Shown here piece after piece: positions 49,555 through 59,018 of a DNA stretch of 64,000 nt. How positions within the stretch are numbered: the first letter of the stretch is position 1; each line of letters starts with the position of its first letter. Origin of the DNA: a virus; UHGV virus genome UHGV-0348865; one strand, 5' to 3'. Under the pieces are notes generated by a model. The model saw nothing but the letters and a program-made list of their open reading frames with translations, searched no databases and had not been told where the DNA came from. A program made the position numbers and the translations under genes.

Positions 49555-50088
49555 ATGAGTTTACTAGGAAGTGTTGAACTGCATGATGTAATTGACAATG
49601 GCTATCTGGATGCGGAGCATAAGTATGTTAACGCTGCTAGTGTGGATATCCGTATTGGTGATACTATCCTTGTTGAAGAACAGGCTGATGGCATCGTTGA
49701 TATTGATGCGAAAGAGAATCTTCAGTGGAAGGAAGTAAAGATTCCTGAAGATGGTTTGGTTATCATCCCGGGTCAGTTCTTCTTGGCTCACTCTATGGAG
49801 GAGTTTAACCTTCCAGATAACATCTCAAGTCTGTTTGTTCTGCGTTCGTCTATGGCTCGTTGTGGTCTGAACCATCTCCACGCTGGGTGGGCTGACGGGG
49901 GTTTTAATAATAGTAAATTGACATTCGAATTCCATAATGTGACCAAGCACCACAGCTTAAGGATTCGTTCTGGTATGCGTGTCGGTCAGATGGTGATGTT
50001 TGAGCACTCTCATGCAGGAGATCACTCCTATGCAGTGAAGGGTCGTTATAATAACTCTGAAGGTGTAGTTGCATCTAAGGGTGTGTAA
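49555..50088 (+). CDS. dcd: dCTP deaminase / dUTPase-fold protein
   Basis: SVDIRIG...PGQFFLAHS...RSSMARCGL motif pattern. Confidence 0.6.
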   Translation: MSLLGSVELHDVIDNGYLDAEHKYVNAASVDIRIGDTILVEEQADGIVDIDAKENLQWKEVKIPEDGLVIIPGQFFLAHSMEEFNLPDNISSLFVLRSSMARCGLNHLHAGWADGGFNNSKLTFEFHNVTKHHSLRIRSGMRVGQMVMFEHSHAGDHSYAVKGRYNNSEGVVASKGV

Positions 50089-50579: not shown

Positions 50580-50906
50580 ATGTTAGATTTGAGTAAAGTG
50601 GCCCCGCCCACTGAAGAGATTACAAAATCCAAGGTGATGCAACAGTTTTATCATCGTGATATGCTTGGTCGCTTTATCAAGAATCGTGATGTTGTTGCTT
50701 GGTCTATTGGTAATCAGGGATATCTGTTGAAGGTTCTTCAGGTTACAGGTTCAACTGCTAAGAGAGTTAAGGTGTATGACCCTGAAATGGGGCGTTCTAA
50801 GTCAGTAGACCCACAGAACTGCATCGTAATTACCCAGCAGATCCTAAGTAATCTAGAAAGAAATGTAGCAAATTCTACTGAGTTAGAAGGAGAAGACCCT
50901 AAGTGA
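50580..50906 (+). CDS. hypothetical protein
   Basis: 108-aa ORF. Confidence 0.35.
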   Translation: MLDLSKVAPPTEEITKSKVMQQFYHRDMLGRFIKNRDVVAWSIGNQGYLLKVLQVTGSTAKRVKVYDPEMGRSKSVDPQNCIVITQQILSNLERNVANSTELEGEDPK

Positions 50907-51397
50907 TTCCAAAGGAATTGGAAGGGAAGATTGATGTAACAGAAGATGGTAGAGTATTTACCGTAAAGAGTAGAAGGTTTTTAACCCTCCACACTAATGG
51001 TGCCTATTATAGAGTCACTATTTACTTTCCTGACGGATTAAAGAATTTCTATGTCCACAGGCTGGTTGCTAGTAAGTACATACCGAACCCTGATAATCTT
51101 CCGTGTGTCAACCATAAGGATGGCAATAAACTTAACAATCATAAAGACAATCTTGAATGGTGTACCCACCGAGAAAACTCTCAACATGCATCATCATTAG
51201 GTTTGATGGTACAGAGGTTTGGAGAAGACAATCCGCAGTCTAAACTTACTCTAAAAGATGTAGAGTACTGTAGGAGAGTTTATATTCCTCGAGATAAAGA
51301 GTTTGGAGGCTCTGCCCTTGCAAGACGTTTTGGTGTCTCTCAGCAAGTGATATCAAAAGTTCTACTTAATCAAACTTGGAGGGAATATAATGCATAA
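50903..51397 (+). CDS. HNH homing endonuclease with C-terminal HTH-like region
   Basis: VNHKDGNKLNNHKDNLEWCTHRENSQH motif; paralogous to 54759..55253. Confidence 0.6.
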   Translation: MIPKELEGKIDVTEDGRVFTVKSRRFLTLHTNGAYYRVTIYFPDGLKNFYVHRLVASKYIPNPDNLPCVNHKDGNKLNNHKDNLEWCTHRENSQHASSLGLMVQRFGEDNPQSKLTLKDVEYCRRVYIPRDKEFGGSALARRFGVSQQVISKVLLNQTWREYNA

Positions 51398-51953
51398 GAA
51401 TGTCTTTGATTTACCTGAGATTGGTCGTGACAGCTATAGCATGTTAGACCGGTCTGAGCTTTCAATCTCTCGCCTTGAAACAATGCAAGGCATGATTAGT
51501 GCAAACAGCCTAGAACACATCCTGAGCTGCTTACAAGCTAACATGGAACTCTTGCATATCAAAGCTAAGAACTACCACTGGAACGTCTCTGGTGCAGGAT
51601 TTCAGGGTGTTCATGGTATGTTTGACGAGCTGGAAGATTACGCACGACAAGTAGGAGATCGTATTGCTGAACGTATGCGTTACCACTGTGTTAAGGTGGA
51701 TGCTACAGCAGCTAACTATCTTTCTCATGCTTGGTTCTCAGAGGGTAATGCTGATCTAGATATGGATGGTATGCTCTCTGATATGTGCATGACCTTGATG
51801 TGTATTATTGAGAAGATGGATGAGTTTGATGGTGATTTAGCCTCATACCCTGTTGATCAGAGTATGCTTCAAGAGATTAATGAAGGTCTTGGCAAGTATT
51901 GCTATTTCGTCAAGAGCAACATGTCCCATTCAAGTGGCGACGTGTCTTACTAA
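51390..51953 (+). CDS. Dps-like ferritin-fold protein
   Basis: KAKNYHWNVSGAGFQGVHGMFDELEDY matches Dps signature. Confidence 0.5.
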   Translation: MHKNVFDLPEIGRDSYSMLDRSELSISRLETMQGMISANSLEHILSCLQANMELLHIKAKNYHWNVSGAGFQGVHGMFDELEDYARQVGDRIAERMRYHCVKVDATAANYLSHAWFSEGNADLDMDGMLSDMCMTLMCIIEKMDEFDGDLASYPVDQSMLQEINEGLGKYCYFVKSNMSHSSGDVSY

Positions 51954-52202
51954 AAACCTCCGCCCTGTCTCCTAACCCGAGGTGGGGCGAACTTATTTAT
52001 AAGGATATAGATATATGTTATCAGCAATCGTATGGGGTATTTGGGCTATCTTTATTGGTGGTGGTATTTACTGGGCTTCTGGTAAGCTTATTGAAGAAAC
52101 CCCTGACAAGAAAGGTGAGATTCAAACAGCATCAACCATCATGGTTATTGTAGCTGTTGTTATCCCATTCCTGCTTCACCTCCTGACCGCATAAGGATTT
52201 AC

Positions 52203-52481
52203 ATGTCTAAAGTAATTAAGTTTTATAGTGATCAGTGTGCTCCATGTAAAGCAATGGCTCCTACCTTTGAGAAGGTTGTTAAGGAGTTTGATGTAGAAGT
52301 GGAAGAGATTAACATCCTTGAAGGTGATGGTCGTGAACAAGCTGTTAAGTATGGTGTACGAAGTATTCCTGCTTTCGTTGTGCCTGACCGAAATAGTGGC
52401 GCACATTATAGTCTATCGGGTATGCAAACTGAAGCAAACCTGAAAGCATTTTTGGATACAGCTCTGAATAATAAGGAATAA
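52203..52481 (+). CDS. thioredoxin-fold protein (CxxC)
   Basis: KVIKFYSDQCAPCKAMAP with CAPC active-site-like motif. Confidence 0.65.
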   Translation: MSKVIKFYSDQCAPCKAMAPTFEKVVKEFDVEVEEINILEGDGREQAVKYGVRSIPAFVVPDRNSGAHYSLSGMQTEANLKAFLDTALNNKE

Positions 52482-52490
52482 GGATAATTA

Positions 52491-53147
52491 ATGTCAGATC
52501 AATTAAAAGCAACACTAGTAGAAGCTATGGGTTCAGATAAATCTGTTGTTAACGCAGCCCGGGTATCTTTTGGTGTAACCCGTGAAGGTGATTTAAATGA
52601 GCGGGATGAACGTCTCATTAATTTCTTAGCTCGTGAGAAGCATGTGACTCCTTTTAGGCACCCACAGGTGACATTTCGCTGTGTAGCTCCTATTGCTATT
52701 GCTCGCCAGCTAGGAAAGCATCAAACGGGGTTTAGTTGGAACGAGATGAGTCGTCGGTATAAGGATGGTGATGTTGAGGTATTTATTCCACAAGAGATCT
52801 TCTCCCGACCTGAAGACCTTCACAAAGGTTCTGGTATCTTATTACAAGACGAAGCCCGCGTAGAAGCTCTCACACTGATTAATGAGGCATATGAAGTAGC
52901 TGTTAGCAATTATGAAAAATTGATTGACCTAATTGCTCCTGAGCAAGCTCGGTTTGTTCTGCCTCAGGGAATGACGACAGAATGGATATGGACTGGCTCT
53001 CTTTACGGGTGGTCGGAAGTATGCCGACAGCGTCTATCAGAACACGCTCAATATGAAGTTCGTTTGTTTGCACAAACTATTGATGAAGAGATGAAGAAGC
53101 TATATCCAATCTCTTGGAAAGCATTATCTACTACTTGGAATAAATAA
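52491..53147 (+). CDS. thyX: ThyX-family (flavin-dependent thymidylate synthase-like) protein with divergent signature
   Basis: VVNAARVSFG, HVTPFRHPQVTF, ARQLGKHQTGFSWNEMSRRY align to ThyX; canonical RHR appears replaced by KHQ. Confidence 0.55.
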   Translation: MSDQLKATLVEAMGSDKSVVNAARVSFGVTREGDLNERDERLINFLAREKHVTPFRHPQVTFRCVAPIAIARQLGKHQTGFSWNEMSRRYKDGDVEVFIPQEIFSRPEDLHKGSGILLQDEARVEALTLINEAYEVAVSNYEKLIDLIAPEQARFVLPQGMTTEWIWTGSLYGWSEVCRQRLSEHAQYEVRLFAQTIDEEMKKLYPISWKALSTTWNK

Positions 53148-54385: not shown

Positions 54386-54758
54386 ACAGTAACTTATAAT
54401 GTATACTCCTTAGTGTACACTGATATATTAAGGAGTTTTAAATGGCAGATCATGTAGGAAAGAGAGATTATGCACAAGAAAGACGTACCGCAATTGCCCG
54501 TGGTGAGACAGGCATTGGGAGCAAGAGCGGAGATGCTCAGCGCCACCGTGCACGTCGCATCGTTGAAAAGCGCGATGGAAAAGCTGCTGTCAGAGGTAAA
54601 GACGTTGGACACAAACGAGCTGTCAAGTCTGGAGGTTCTAATGCGTCAAGCAACTTACGTGTTGAATCAGTCAGCTCAAACCGTTCAAACGGCGGCAAAA
54701 GTGGTGATCGAGCTGGAAAAGCAGCTGGAGCCGCTAAGCGAAAAGGGGCACTGAGTCA

Positions 54759-55253
54759 GTGATTCCTATTAGAAGTTGGCTTTCTTATGATGAAAAATCT
54801 GGAAAGCTCTTCTTTACTTCATCTGCAGAAAAAGGTCGTAAGTGGAATAAGAGCCATCCCGGCAAAGAGGCTGGTCATATAAACCGAAAAGGTTATATAG
54901 GCATCTTTTTCGAGGGTAGGCATTGGAAAGCTCACAGACTTATAGCAACACATTTGATACCAAACCCTAACAACTATCCAGAGATAAATCATATAAATGG
55001 AATTAAATCTGATAACAGGTTGGAAAATCTTGAATGGGTGACTCCTTCTGAAAATGTGAGGCATTCATTTGATATAGGTTTAAATGTTGGAAAGGTTCGC
55101 GACCTTAATGCAGCCACCAAATTATCCTCTGGAGATGTTGTAAAGATCAAACAGATGTATGTGAAGGGTTCTAGGGATTTTGGCTCTAGAGGTCTTGGTA
55201 AGTTGTTCGGTGTGAGCCATACAGCTATACTCCATGCTTTAAAGGAGCTTTAA
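54759..55253 (+). CDS. HNH homing endonuclease with C-terminal HTH-like region
   Basis: INHINGIKSDNRLENLEWVTPSENVRH motif; paralogue of 50903..51397. Confidence 0.55.
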   Translation: MIPIRSWLSYDEKSGKLFFTSSAEKGRKWNKSHPGKEAGHINRKGYIGIFFEGRHWKAHRLIATHLIPNPNNYPEINHINGIKSDNRLENLEWVTPSENVRHSFDIGLNVGKVRDLNAATKLSSGDVVKIKQMYVKGSRDFGSRGLGKLFGVSHTAILHALKEL

Positions 55254-56467: not shown

Positions 56468-57820
56468 GTGAGCAACCCGGACGCTCTTCCATTTTTGACA
56501 GAGATGACTGTCGCTGATATAATCTCTAAGCAAGCAAAGCACGGAGTGAGTTTCAACCGAAGAAATGCTCGGTGGTATGTTCACCTCCTTAAAGAGATTA
56601 TTGTTAATATTGACAGAGAGTTGATTCCTCTCTTACCCAAGATGAGATTAGATGGCTCTACTTATATGAAGCCGTTTAAGAAGTCTGGAGCTTTACAGAA
56701 GTGGCCTCAAGCCTATTGTGATAGGGTTGGGCTGAAGAGAGAAGACATTGGTGGAGCTTTCACCTGTGTCGAATACGTAGACTTTGACCCATCGAAAGAT
56801 GCACGAGTTAAAGAAGCTCTTATGGATGAGGGCTTTCTTCCTCCAGAGTTTAACGTATCTAAGAAGCCTTGGAATACTTTCGAAATTAAGAAAGATATGA
56901 GAAAGTATGGAACATACCAAGCATGGTATACTGCTTGGATGCGAGGCAATGCTAAGCAGAAGCAGACAGCTGAGATGGTTGACGCTGATATTAAGAAGTT
57001 CTTAGAAAAGCATTTCAGGTTTAAAACTAAGAATTACATGAAGGCTTACGTGTTTGGTTTAGGTTTAAACCCTAACCGACGTAATCCTGTAACGTTTGAT
57101 GAGATTAAGAAAGCACTAGCCACATCAAACAAGTGGCCTACAGCTCCTACAAACCTCGAGGAGACTCTTGAAGAAGGGTTAGGGGGTGAGCTAGGGAGTG
57201 TCGGAAGTTTGCTTAAGAGACGCGTTGTAGCGGCTCACAGGCTGGGTCTTATCAGTGGACTTATAGCAAAGGAACGCGAAGATGGTAAACTTTCGGCAGA
57301 AGCTAACAGCTGCGCTACGCCAACTTTTCGATTCAAACATCGTATCGTGGTTAATATTCCCTCCCGTGGTTTGTTTGGTCACGAGTGTCGCAGTTTGTTT
57401 GAGTCTGACTATAACTCAGACAGTGATCACTCTCGTCCTTTCGTTATTACTAACGTTGTTCCTGATGGTTGTTATATACGAAAAGGTACTAACGTAATTT
57501 ACGAGAAAGGTAAGCCGGGGAAGAAAGACAAACCTGTAGGTGCTTACAAATATTACATACCCGCTGGTAAAGAAGTATTCTTAGGGTATGATGGTTCTGG
57601 GCTTGAACTTCGTATGCTCGCTCACTACCTCATTAAAGAGTGTAGGGATATGCTTGCTGAGGCAATCGAAGAGAACAACCCAGCTAAGAAAGCTCTGGCA
57701 GAACGTGGTTTAGCTTCTGCTATTATGTATCGTGATATTCTCCTTGAAGGTGATATTCACTCCCACAACCAGAAACTTGCTGGTCTTCCTACTCGTGACA
57801 ATGCTAAAACGTTTATCTGA
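56468..57820 (+). CDS. DNA polymerase (T7 gp5-like, family A) polymerase-domain fragment 1
   Basis: GYDGSGLELRMLAHY and LEGDIHSHNQKLAGLPTRDNAKTFI align with T7 DNA polymerase; ORF stops right after TFI. Confidence 0.8.
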   Translation: MSNPDALPFLTEMTVADIISKQAKHGVSFNRRNARWYVHLLKEIIVNIDRELIPLLPKMRLDGSTYMKPFKKSGALQKWPQAYCDRVGLKREDIGGAFTCVEYVDFDPSKDARVKEALMDEGFLPPEFNVSKKPWNTFEIKKDMRKYGTYQAWYTAWMRGNAKQKQTAEMVDADIKKFLEKHFRFKTKNYMKAYVFGLGLNPNRRNPVTFDEIKKALATSNKWPTAPTNLEETLEEGLGGELGSVGSLLKRRVVAAHRLGLISGLIAKEREDGKLSAEANSCATPTFRFKHRIVVNIPSRGLFGHECRSLFESDYNSDSDHSRPFVITNVVPDGCYIRKGTNVIYEKGKPGKKDKPVGAYKYYIPAGKEVFLGYDGSGLELRMLAHYLIKECRDMLAEAIEENNPAKKALAERGLASAIMYRDILLEGDIHSHNQKLAGLPTRDNAKTFI

Positions 57821-57933
57821 CGTAAATGGATACTTCGAGAGTAATCTCGTCGATTAAATTGGGTGAACTCAGGGAAACTCTCTAGTAGACAATCCTGAGC
57901 CAAGCAAGTATTCTATAGCAACTCAACAAGGAG

Positions 57934-58440
57934 GTGCTTATGGAATATACAACTGTAACTAAAACTAAAGAAGAACAGACTGCCGAGGCAGGTAAATACC
58001 CTCAAGGTCAGTTCAACCCAAAACCTTGTCGTAATTGCTCAAAAGATTTTCAACCAAATGCACCATCTGAACATTATTGCTCTGATGGATGCAAAGATAG
58101 AGGCTGGAGAAATTCATACTTCAAACGAATGTATGGAATCACAGCCGATGATTACGAAAAGATGTACGCTGATCAGGATGGGAAGTGTGCTATCTGTAAG
58201 GGCGAAGGGTTTGTAATGGCAACACATCACAGAATTAGACTTGTGGTTGATCATTGCCATGAATCTGGAGTAATACGTGGTCTGTTGTGCCACAACTGCA
58301 ACAGAGCTTTAGGGCTACTGAAAGATGATGTTAGCCGATTAGAAACAGCTATAGAATACTTGAAGGTGCAACGACTATCCGAAAGGAGTACACCGGAAGC
58401 TGATGCCGGTGGAAGCGCCCAACCCCTCGACAGAGGGTGA
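57934..58440 (+). CDS. HNH / endonuclease VII-like homing endonuclease inserted within DNA polymerase gene
   Basis: Cys-rich N-terminus, motif HRIRLVVDHCHESGVIRGLLCHNCNRALG (His-Me finger). Confidence 0.65.
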   Translation: MLMEYTTVTKTKEEQTAEAGKYPQGQFNPKPCRNCSKDFQPNAPSEHYCSDGCKDRGWRNSYFKRMYGITADDYEKMYADQDGKCAICKGEGFVMATHHRIRLVVDHCHESGVIRGLLCHNCNRALGLLKDDVSRLETAIEYLKVQRLSERSTPEADAGGSAQPLDRG

Positions 58441-58496
58441 TGATATAGTCTATCCTACACGGCGACGTGTAGCAGTTCATAAGAGAACGGGCAGGA

Positions 58497-59018
58497 GTGT
58501 TGCGGCTCCTGTCGAATATACGAGATGCATTCAACTACGGTGCTGGTGATGCTAAGCTAGGTTCAATTGTAGGAGGCGGGGCTGACGAAGGTTCAGTGAT
58601 GCGAGCACGTTTCTTGGCAGAGAACCCATGTATTGCAATCCTTATTGATCGTATGACAGAAAAGGCTGCTCAGGGATACTTGATTGGTGTTGATGGTCGT
58701 AAGATTACAATGAGACGAGATGCCACTGGTAAAGTTATGGTTCATAAAGCTCTTAACACACTCCTGCAATGTGCTGGTGCTGTTGTTATGAAATATGCTA
58801 TGATGTTCCTAAACAAGTGGATTGAGAGAGATGGAGTTCGTTGTGCTAAGGTAATTGATATGCACGATGAAGGTCAATTCTCAGTAAACCGTAATGATGT
58901 ACAGAAACTCAAAGAGCACACCGAGCTTTGTGTTAAGAAGGCTGGTGAGTATTTGAACATGGAGTGTCCTCTGGCTTCTGATTGTCAGATTGGATTAAAT
59001 TGGATGCATACGCACTAA
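58497..59018 (+). CDS. DNA polymerase (T7 gp5-like) polymerase-domain fragment 2
   Basis: GTG start; AFNYGAGDAKLGSIVGG and KALNTLLQCAGAVV align with T7 YGFLYGAGDEKIGQIVGAG and ALNTLLQSAGAL. Confidence 0.8.
   Translation: MLRLLSNIRDAFNYGAGDAKLGSIVGGGADEGSVMRARFLAENPCIAILIDRMTEKAAQGYLIGVDGRKITMRRDATGKVMVHKALNTLLQCAGAVVMKYAMMFLNKWIERDGVRCAKVIDMHDEGQFSVNRNDVQKLKEHTELCVKKAGEYLNMECPLASDCQIGLNWMHTH

Follow-up and report, generated by a model that had tools for sequence, protein, structure and literature searches.

Two adjacent genes at positions 52 203-53 147 of a 64 000-nucleotide stretch of the virus genome UHGV-0348865 (the whole stretch is called the window hereafter) raise a twofold question. 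One encodes a small thioredoxin (Trx), the other a flavin-dependent thymidylate synthase (ThyX) in which the RHR triplet typical of the family is replaced by KHQ. An initial annotation, made from the sequence alone, proposed that the phage thioredoxin may substitute for that of the host as processivity factor of a T7-type DNA polymerase, and that the KHQ substitution might alter the substrate or the chemistry of ThyX. Do these proteins really depart from what their families are known to do?

The window derives from a Kuravirus (phiEco32-like) phage: its nucleotide identity is 88-92% with phiEco32, SU10, YF01 and Bas90-94, and similar with about 100 further Kuravirus/Gordonclarkvirinae phages. 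The Trx/ThyX pair is already annotated, as gp65/gp64 of phiEco32 (since 2008) and in about 100 relatives. Both genes are thus ordinary and known, and what appears to be uncharacterised is the KHQ(X)8S motif, a real and conserved variant of ThyX. The explanation that we favour, with a probability of roughly 65%, is that the phage makes a working KHQ-type ThyX, which would produce thymidylate (dTMP) as other ThyX enzymes do, and a minimal, redox-competent thioredoxin, whose main job would be disulfide reduction in support of deoxynucleoside triphosphate (dNTP) supply. It builds on identities, fold, residue conservation, distribution and synteny; from these we infer enzyme activity, the consequences for cofactor binding and the client of the thioredoxin.

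The KHQ(X)8S signature of ThyX

Membership of the ThyX family is indicated by matches of the open reading frame (ORF) to Pfam Thy1 (PF02511; E=1.3e-44, 152.7 bits for a cutoff of 24.8), to the NCBIfam thyX equivalog TIGR02170 (129.6 bits for a cutoff of 87.9) and to phrog_85 (7e-64). A ligand-free AlphaFold2 model, built with 128 homologues, has a mean predicted local distance difference test score of 95.2 and a predicted template modelling (TM) score of 0.89; a Foldseek search of the PDB aligned it with Thermotoga maritima ThyX at a TM score of 0.82-0.83 over about 210 residues. The fold is shared with the canonical enzymes of T. maritima (TM0449, about 33-35% identical in sequence), Thermus thermophilus, Mycobacterium tuberculosis and the virus PBCV-1 (A674R).

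In HMMER alignments, the segment ARQLGKHQTGFSWNEMSRRY of the window protein faces ARQWFRHRIA-SYNELSGRY of the T. maritima and T. thermophilus enzymes. RHR has become KHQ and one residue is inserted, so that the signature RHR(X)7S turns into K76-H77-Q78-(X)8-S87, of which just the His and the Ser remain, one residue further apart. The substitution seen in the initial annotation is therefore confirmed by alignment with two reference enzymes: the RHR motif is not intact. It is not peculiar to this phage either, since 117 of the 120 homologues nearest to it, whose identity goes down to 56%, have KHQ with the same spacing. A broader alignment comprised 153 sequences, i.e. the window ThyX, the two canonical references and 150 cluster representatives (50% identity), the best obtained on searching 1.84 billion proteins. 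KHQ was present in 72 of them and nearly all others had [K/R]-H-x, x being K, T, Q or H, while RHR was found in three sequences, two of which were the added references. A Gly at position 80 was found in 139 sequences, and an Arg at position 88, which corresponds to Gly89 of T. maritima, in 142. Among 25 diverse homologues, residues K76, H77, Q78, G80, W83, E85, S87, R89 and Y90 were invariant. The subfamily signature can be written as [K/R]-H-x-[V/I/T]-G-[L/F/M]-x-W-[N/S]-E-x-S-R-R-Y. A sequencing error or a pseudogene as the origin of KHQ is ruled out by this clade-wide invariance. KHQ, as these alignments show, is no lesion but a signature fixed throughout a large subfamily of ThyX.

How widespread is this subfamily? 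Two motif patterns applied to IMG/VR retrieved at least 600 viral loci with a KHQ-type ThyX and, among the matches listed, the gene adjoins those of a T7-type polymerase and a primase-helicase in many cases. A stricter pattern, applied to 185,579 species with one genome each, gave 34 loci; as the two scans used different patterns, the ratio of viral to cellular occurrences is indicative only. The subfamily is mainly but not exclusively viral. Strict virus specificity is ruled out by several genome matches lying among housekeeping genes: in a Spirochaetaceae metagenome-assembled genome (WTKD01000014.1, locus L084, 2968-3633), the thyX gene is located between those for citrate synthase/aldo-keto reductase and pyrD/pyrF, and in assembled genomes of Dehalococcoidia, Nitrospinota and Poribacteria (L088, L099 and L102) it is surrounded by housekeeping genes. 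Such chromosomal contexts are the strongest, if indirect, argument at present for regarding the KHQ type as a true thymidylate synthase, and the co-occurrence of a dCTP deaminase gene is a further indirect sign. A relative of this clade of the RHT type (P0265), on a Logan contig from SRR19787804 (locus L122), has genes for SET/zf-MYND proteins, a NIF phosphatase and a long dUTPase as neighbours, a context that is eukaryote-like or giant-virus-like.

Comparison with the T. maritima enzyme indicates which functions may be touched by the substitutions. The residues kept are Gln75 (Q73 in the window protein), Glu86 (E85), Ser88 (S87), Arg90 (R89), Tyr91 (Y90), Arg147 (R154), Arg174 (R181), His178 (H185) and His53 (H57). 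All but H185 belong to the set of ten dUMP-binding or catalytic residues and are shared with canonical ThyX, which makes eight identities out of ten; the two exceptions are Arg78, replaced by Lys, and Arg80, replaced by Gln. Besides these and the one-residue insertion, Asn163 is replaced by Ser, Arg165 by Tyr and Gly89 by Arg. In canonical ThyX, the RHR residues together with an Arg from a second subunit contact the phosphates and the ribityl chain of flavin adenine dinucleotide (FAD), and hydrogen bonds to dUMP are made by Arg78, Arg80, Ser88 and Arg90; in the PBCV-1 enzyme, the side chain of residue 89 is able to occupy the dUMP phosphate pocket. Because the altered residues are in contact with the phosphates of FAD and dUMP, it is more probable that the anchoring of cofactor or substrate differs than that another product is made. 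The substitutions would remodel the hold on these phosphates, and the Arg found at the position of T. maritima Gly89 may act in the place of Arg80. What distinguishes the KHQ clade could then be a relocation of arginines around the flavin and dUMP phosphate sites, with no new substrate. Most likely, to judge from the residues retained, KHQ-type ThyX keeps the usual chemistry and still makes thymidylate. The proposal that KHQ alters substrate or chemistry found no support: the motif is a fixed subfamily signature, the catalytic residues are kept, and the gene also sits in chromosomes beside pyrD/pyrF.

The textbook signature RHR(X)7S fails for a large, mostly viral part of the family, although Arg80 has been called a conserved dUMP ligand. 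We found in the literature no description or assay of the KHQ variant, which may nonetheless have been recognised before. At least one evolutionary survey of ThyX dropped those sequences in which more than two dissimilar residues depart from RHRX7S; since motif-deviating sequences were excluded in this way, the diversity of viral ThyX may be under-sampled. Inhibitor and mechanism work carried out on RHR enzymes may not transfer to the KHQ type.

Inteins typically home to functionally critical sites. Several metagenomic KHQ-type ThyX genes (P0121, P0127 and P0261) carry an HNH-containing intein exactly inside the motif, the intein (C...HN) being lodged between KHQxG[F/M] and SW[N/S]E. One locus with an intein-bearing gene (L123, 6001-7422) has a phage-like context, and its adjoining ribonucleotide reductase gene is apparently split around an ORF of the GIY-YIG type, according to a weak Pfam match.

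The thioredoxin and the T7-type polymerase

The thioredoxin-fold protein with a CAPC motif announced by the initial annotation is indeed one: the ORF matches PF00085 (E=2.2e-13, 50.5 bits for a cutoff of 23.5) and aligns with residues 24-106 of Escherichia coli TrxA (EcTrxA), the N-terminal beta1-alpha1 unit (the first 20 residues or so) being missing. Its C13-A-P-C16 and its cis-Pro loop RSIP align with C32-G-P-C35 and RGIP76 of EcTrxA. It thus possesses a thioredoxin-fold domain with CxxC and cis-Pro, but with 49.2 bits against TIGR01068 it stays below the cutoff of 96.8 for full-length canonical thioredoxins. The active site reads QCAPC instead of WCGPC; Trp28 is replaced by Tyr, Trp31 by Gln and Gly74 by Ser, and the equivalent of Gly92 is retained. 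CAPC is counted as a canonical active-site variant in a preprint on cyanophage Syn5. Orthologues with C[AS]PC exist in Salmonella phage SE131 and Proteus phage J3S, and no orthologue has lost either cysteine, even where identity is as low as 40-47%. The orthologue of SU10 has been detected by mass spectrometry.

Is the thioredoxin a partner of ThyX? Its distribution says no. It is a core gene of the phages with C3 morphotype, kept in every one examined, including some that are without ThyX. No Trx was found within 7 kb at 78 of the 80 viral KHQ-ThyX loci scanned, and a Trx-like ORF was seen near ThyX at Kuravirus and 7-11-like loci alone. Four ORFs lie between the two genes in SE131. In J3S, where the order is dCTP deaminase (Dcd), Trx, a hypothetical ORF and Dps, and where NrdAB and NrdD are encoded, Trx is present and ThyX was not found in the 24-kb replication region; no thymidylate synthase is reported in the paper on the related phage Privateer. 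In Aeromonas phage LAh_9, a Trx-like gene (CVNC) lies beside the ribonucleotide reductase genes and the KHQ-type ThyX abuts the polymerase. Functional coupling of the two proteins is rejected in view of the 78 loci that have no Trx within 7 kb and of the 24-kb region of J3S, and Trx is not coupled to ThyX.

The most likely job of this 92-residue protein, which would be a minimal redox-competent thioredoxin, is disulfide reduction supporting dNTP supply. There are precedents for it. Phage T4 NrdC is a redoxin serving ribonucleotide reductase. The TrxA protein of Syn5, so far the sole thioredoxin of a phage to have been studied, has redox activity and promotes the replication of the genome; like the window protein, it is a small CxxC redoxin tied to dNTP supply. 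The window protein differs from both in one respect, for the 49 kb of phiEco32 examined (20-69 kb) contain no annotated ribonucleotide reductase. Since Kuraviruses apparently are without such an enzyme, a reductase client of their thioredoxin must be that of the host, presumably NrdAB, unless the client is of another kind; in relatives it could be the phage's own reductase.

A second role, not exclusive of the first, would be that of an accessory subunit of the T7-like polymerase. In its strong form, this explanation makes the thioredoxin a dedicated processivity subunit, bound at the thumb insert of the phage enzyme and freeing the phage from host trxA. We rank it after the redox function: it is plausible in view of the sequences, though we would give it clearly less than even odds, and it is not new, as it was published as a hypothesis in 2021 for the C3 phage Privateer. 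Part of what the initial annotation had said of the polymerase must be corrected in this connection. The enzyme is of the T7 type, as stated, but the gene is not beside that of the thioredoxin, as it begins 3.3 kb downstream (at 56468), and the supposed polymerase fragments are in fact two exons around a group I intron of 706 bp. The intron covers the full length of Rfam model RF00028 (E=1.5e-9) with a score of 43.5 bits, short of the gathering score of 50. It splits the gene in motif B (KTFI/Y/AFNYG), whereas the gene of phiEco32 is intact (614 residues) and does not have the 706-bp insertion.

Does this polymerase have a place for a thioredoxin? Residues ~59-96 form a short thumb insert that resembles the thioredoxin-binding domain of T7 gp5. 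A global MAFFT alignment with T7-like polymerases misplaced the thumb region of phiEco32, and a focused alignment of the T7, phiEco32, SE131, J3S and MR299-2 enzymes was used instead. It showed similarity at both ends of the domain (SWYQPKGG of T7 against TYMKPFKKSG, and TREYVAGAPYTPVEHVVFNPS against KREDIGGAFTCVEYVDFDPS). The insert is of ~40 residues, as compared to 76 in T7 gp5 (residues 262-338), and ~26 central T7 residues, with the basic loop, are missing. By local HMMER alignment, residues 63-135 of the phage polymerase pair with 295-363 of gp5, at a weak 9.7 bits. The likeness to the EcTrxA/gp5 couple consists of a thioredoxin fold with Cxx(P)C and the equivalents of cis-Pro76 and Gly92 on one side, and of a T7-type polymerase with a thumb insert on the other. 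There are differences too: the thioredoxin is phage-encoded, lacks beta1-alpha1 and has CAPC together with the three replacements listed above, and the polymerase, apart from its shorter insert devoid of the central basic loop, has no fused exonuclease domain.

Other observations bear on the processivity role in both directions. Besides the resemblance of the insert, one may count in its favour that Trx is never missing in the C3 phages examined, that its identity among most isolates of Kuravirus is 97-100%, as against values down to ~70-80% for ThyX, and that a ribonucleotide reductase of the phage, which it could serve, is apparently lacking in Kuravirus. On the other side, the processivity function of thioredoxin in T7 needs no redox chemistry, yet both active-site cysteines are conserved throughout the orthologues. 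Moreover, the Gly74 equivalent is a Ser and both Trp28 and Trp31 are replaced; the Trx-like gene of relatives adjoins those of ribonucleotide reductase; and the Bruynoghevirus MR299-2 has a homologous polymerase with the insert, but no Trx was detected in 37.6 of its 44.8 kb (84%). For Syn5, structure prediction placed the host thioredoxin rather than the phage one on the polymerase, and the authors judged a processivity role unlikely. The Trx and polymerase pair offers a cheap test case for a processivity thioredoxin supplied by a phage.

Thymidylate supply, cofactor use and DNA modification

According to the explanation that we favour, Trx and ThyX would be part of a middle-gene cluster for nucleotide metabolism and replication. 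ThyX would methylate dUMP with methylenetetrahydrofolate and reduced flavin to give dTMP. The dUMP probably originates from the phage dCTP deaminase, whose gene is located 2.1 kb upstream and which would convert dCTP to dUTP, and from a dUTPase acting next. Neither the annotated genes of phiEco32 nor the scanned ORFs of the window showed a phage dUTPase, hence the assumption that this second step is performed by host Dut. The dcd gene is kept next to Trx or ThyX in SE131, J3S and LAh_9. The couple formed by dCTP deaminase and ThyX is likely to be an ordinary route for boosting dTTP supply, and its outcome would be to shift the nucleotide pool of a host of about 51% G+C to suit a phage genome of 42% (41.9% in the window, against ~50.8% for E. 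coli).

Several facts count against this explanation. As regards ThyX, there is no KHQ-type enzyme in the PDB, where the best sequence match is the canonical T. thermophilus ThyX (104 bits), and Arg80 has been reported to be a conserved ligand of dUMP, so that its loss could matter more than we assume. To our knowledge, no KHQ-type ThyX has been assayed to date. As regards the thioredoxin, E. coli is already rich in TrxA and Grx, Kuraviruses appear to have no ribonucleotide reductase of their own, and the polymerase insert does resemble the binding domain of T7 at both ends. Lastly, the Gordonclarkvirinae were described as 'remarkably resistant' to restriction-modification with no known modification pathway, and the authors of that description suggested that deoxyuridine (dU) replaces T; an unrecognised DNA modification might therefore conceivably exist in these phages.

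If ThyX does depart from the canonical enzyme, it might be in its cofactor rather than in its product. Loss of the two arginines that hold the flavin pyrophosphate could have changed the cofactor or reductant regime, with FAD bound loosely or exchangeably, with flavin mononucleotide (FMN) in its place or with another electron donor, the product being the same. The residues concerned are the equivalents of Arg80 and Arg165, which bind the adenosine monophosphate and FMN phosphates of FAD in canonical enzymes; they are Gln and Tyr in the window protein and non-Arg or hydrophobic across the clade, and the changes are correlated clade-wide and go with the Gly-containing insertion. But Lys76 and His77 remain, and the equivalent of Arg165 is also missing in T. 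thermophilus ThyX, which is of the RHR type. We consider such a change unlikely. Slightly less likely still is a combined version, in which the rebuilt phosphate site confers a different cofactor or reductant behaviour, conceivably even a different product, and, separately, the thioredoxin is the first phage-encoded processivity subunit for a polymerase of the T7 type.

The weakest proposal, which we deem very improbable, is that the ThyX-like enzyme makes a C5-modified dUMP instead of dTMP and feeds a DNA modification behind the restriction resistance of the Gordonclarkvirinae: that resistance has no known pathway, sites of the tested systems are not depleted, the signature is altered at positions for which contacts with dUMP have been described, and ThyX paralogues with altered substrates, such as PolB, do exist, but the uracil-stacking and catalytic residues are intact, KHQ is shared by hundreds of unrelated phages and by chromosomal genes in housekeeping contexts beside pyrD and pyrF, nanopore sequencing of native DNA from the relative YF01 gave reads of Q20-Q30 with zero polishing corrections, the termini of phiEco32 were mapped partly by restriction profiling, and more than 100 genomes have been sequenced routinely.

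The counts of restriction sites in the window are as follows. For EcoRI, EcoRV, EcoKI and EcoP1 they amount to 11, 37, 8 and 97, at or near expectation, and site avoidance as the cause of resistance is thereby ruled out. Other sites are depleted: strongly so for CCWGG (8 observed versus 71 expected), to a lesser degree for GATC (143 versus 237), and also for GC-rich palindromic hexamers, there being no BamHI, KpnI or SacI site at all. As to the published proposal of dU-containing DNA, a conserved and apparently functional ThyX in essentially all Gordonclarkvirinae argues against it, as do the clean nanopore reads of YF01. That ThyX is core to the subfamily counters the dU proposal and sharpens the question of how restriction is resisted.

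Gene neighbourhood

The Trx and ThyX genes are separated by 9 nucleotides, and an AAGGA ribosome-binding site lies in front of both (positions of all features are given in Table 1). Overlapping ORFs on the minus strand are short, and no family support was found for them. Gene order is the same in phiEco32, namely Dps (gp67), small ORF (gp66), Trx (gp65), ThyX (gp64), LigA domain Ia (gp62) and PhoH (gp60), except that phiEco32 has an additional small ORF (gp63) after ThyX and has neither the two HNH genes nor the polymerase intron of the window. Trx (98.9% identical to gp65), Dps, LigA-Ia, PhoH, exonuclease and primase-helicase are all 97-100% identical between the two phages. Compared with these flanking genes, the 81% identity of ThyX to gp64 marks it as a locally divergent allele, at a local mosaic or a recombination hot spot.

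Table 1. Features of the window discussed in the text, in order of position
Feature	Position	Strand	Evidence or remark
Amidoligase, glutamine amidotransferase, ATP-grasp (RimK-like) and gamma-glutamyl cyclotransferase-type gene cluster	39843-45621		matches phiEco32 gp77-gp86
dCTP deaminase (Dcd)	49555..50088	+	Pfam DCD 4e-33; TIGR02274 104.4 bits, cutoff 92.8
HNH_3 endonuclease ORF, 164 residues	50903-51397		paralogue of 54759-55253
Dps/ferritin-like protein	51390..51953	+	Pfam Ferritin 2.7e-07; phiEco32 gp67 annotated as Dps-family
Terminator-like hairpin	51961-51989		11-bp stem; 3' of Dps gene
59-residue ORF with two hydrophobic stretches	52015..52194	+	equivalent of phiEco32 gp66; directly upstream of Trx
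Small thioredoxin, 92 residues, CAPC active site	52203..52481	+	orthologue of phiEco32 gp65
ThyX of the KHQ(X)8S subfamily, 218 residues	52491..53147	+	orthologue of phiEco32 gp64
Variant ThyX signature K76-H77-Q78-T-G80-F-S-W-N-E85-M-S87-R88-R89-Y90	52716..52760	+	
LigA-type DNA ligase domain Ia, 109 residues	53150-53479		Pfam Nlig-Ia 4e-35
TAATGTAT element	54397-54404		after PhoH
HNH_3 endonuclease ORF, 164 residues	54759-55253		paralogue of 50903-51397
Exon 1 of exonuclease-less T7-type family A DNA polymerase	56468..57818	+	99.8% identical to phiEco32 gp53 residues 1-450
Group I intron in polymerase gene, 706 bp	57819..58524	+	Rfam RF00028; precise insertion relative to phiEco32
Endonuclease VII/HNH ORF in intron	57934-58440		Pfam Endonuclease_7 7e-24
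Polymerase exon 2, motif B onward	58525..59018	+	DNA_pol_A 1.9e-16; 98.8% identical to phiEco32 gp53 residues 452-614

The 59-residue ORF just before Trx had no family match and is probably a small membrane protein. A terminator-like hairpin follows the Dps gene, and an TAATGTAT element, which forms the core of the late and the middle promoters in phiEco32, is found after PhoH. This arrangement suggests that the small ORF, Trx, ThyX, LigA-Ia and PhoH constitute a single transcription unit. The Dps gene itself occurs together with Trx in C3-morphotype phages, after Trx in J3S and after ThyX in SE131, and both genes were present in all five C3 phages compared in an earlier study (PMC4281155).

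The ORF that follows ThyX corresponds to the NAD+-binding domain Ia of a LigA-type DNA ligase alone; it is called 'DNA ligase' in the annotation of relatives, yet is without adenylation or OB domains. The two paralogous HNH_3 ORFs look like free-standing homing endonuclease insertions, as the stretches which contain them are unmatched in the alignment with phiEco32. At a greater distance upstream, the cluster of amidoligase and ATP-grasp genes is present too in SE131, J3S and LAh_9.

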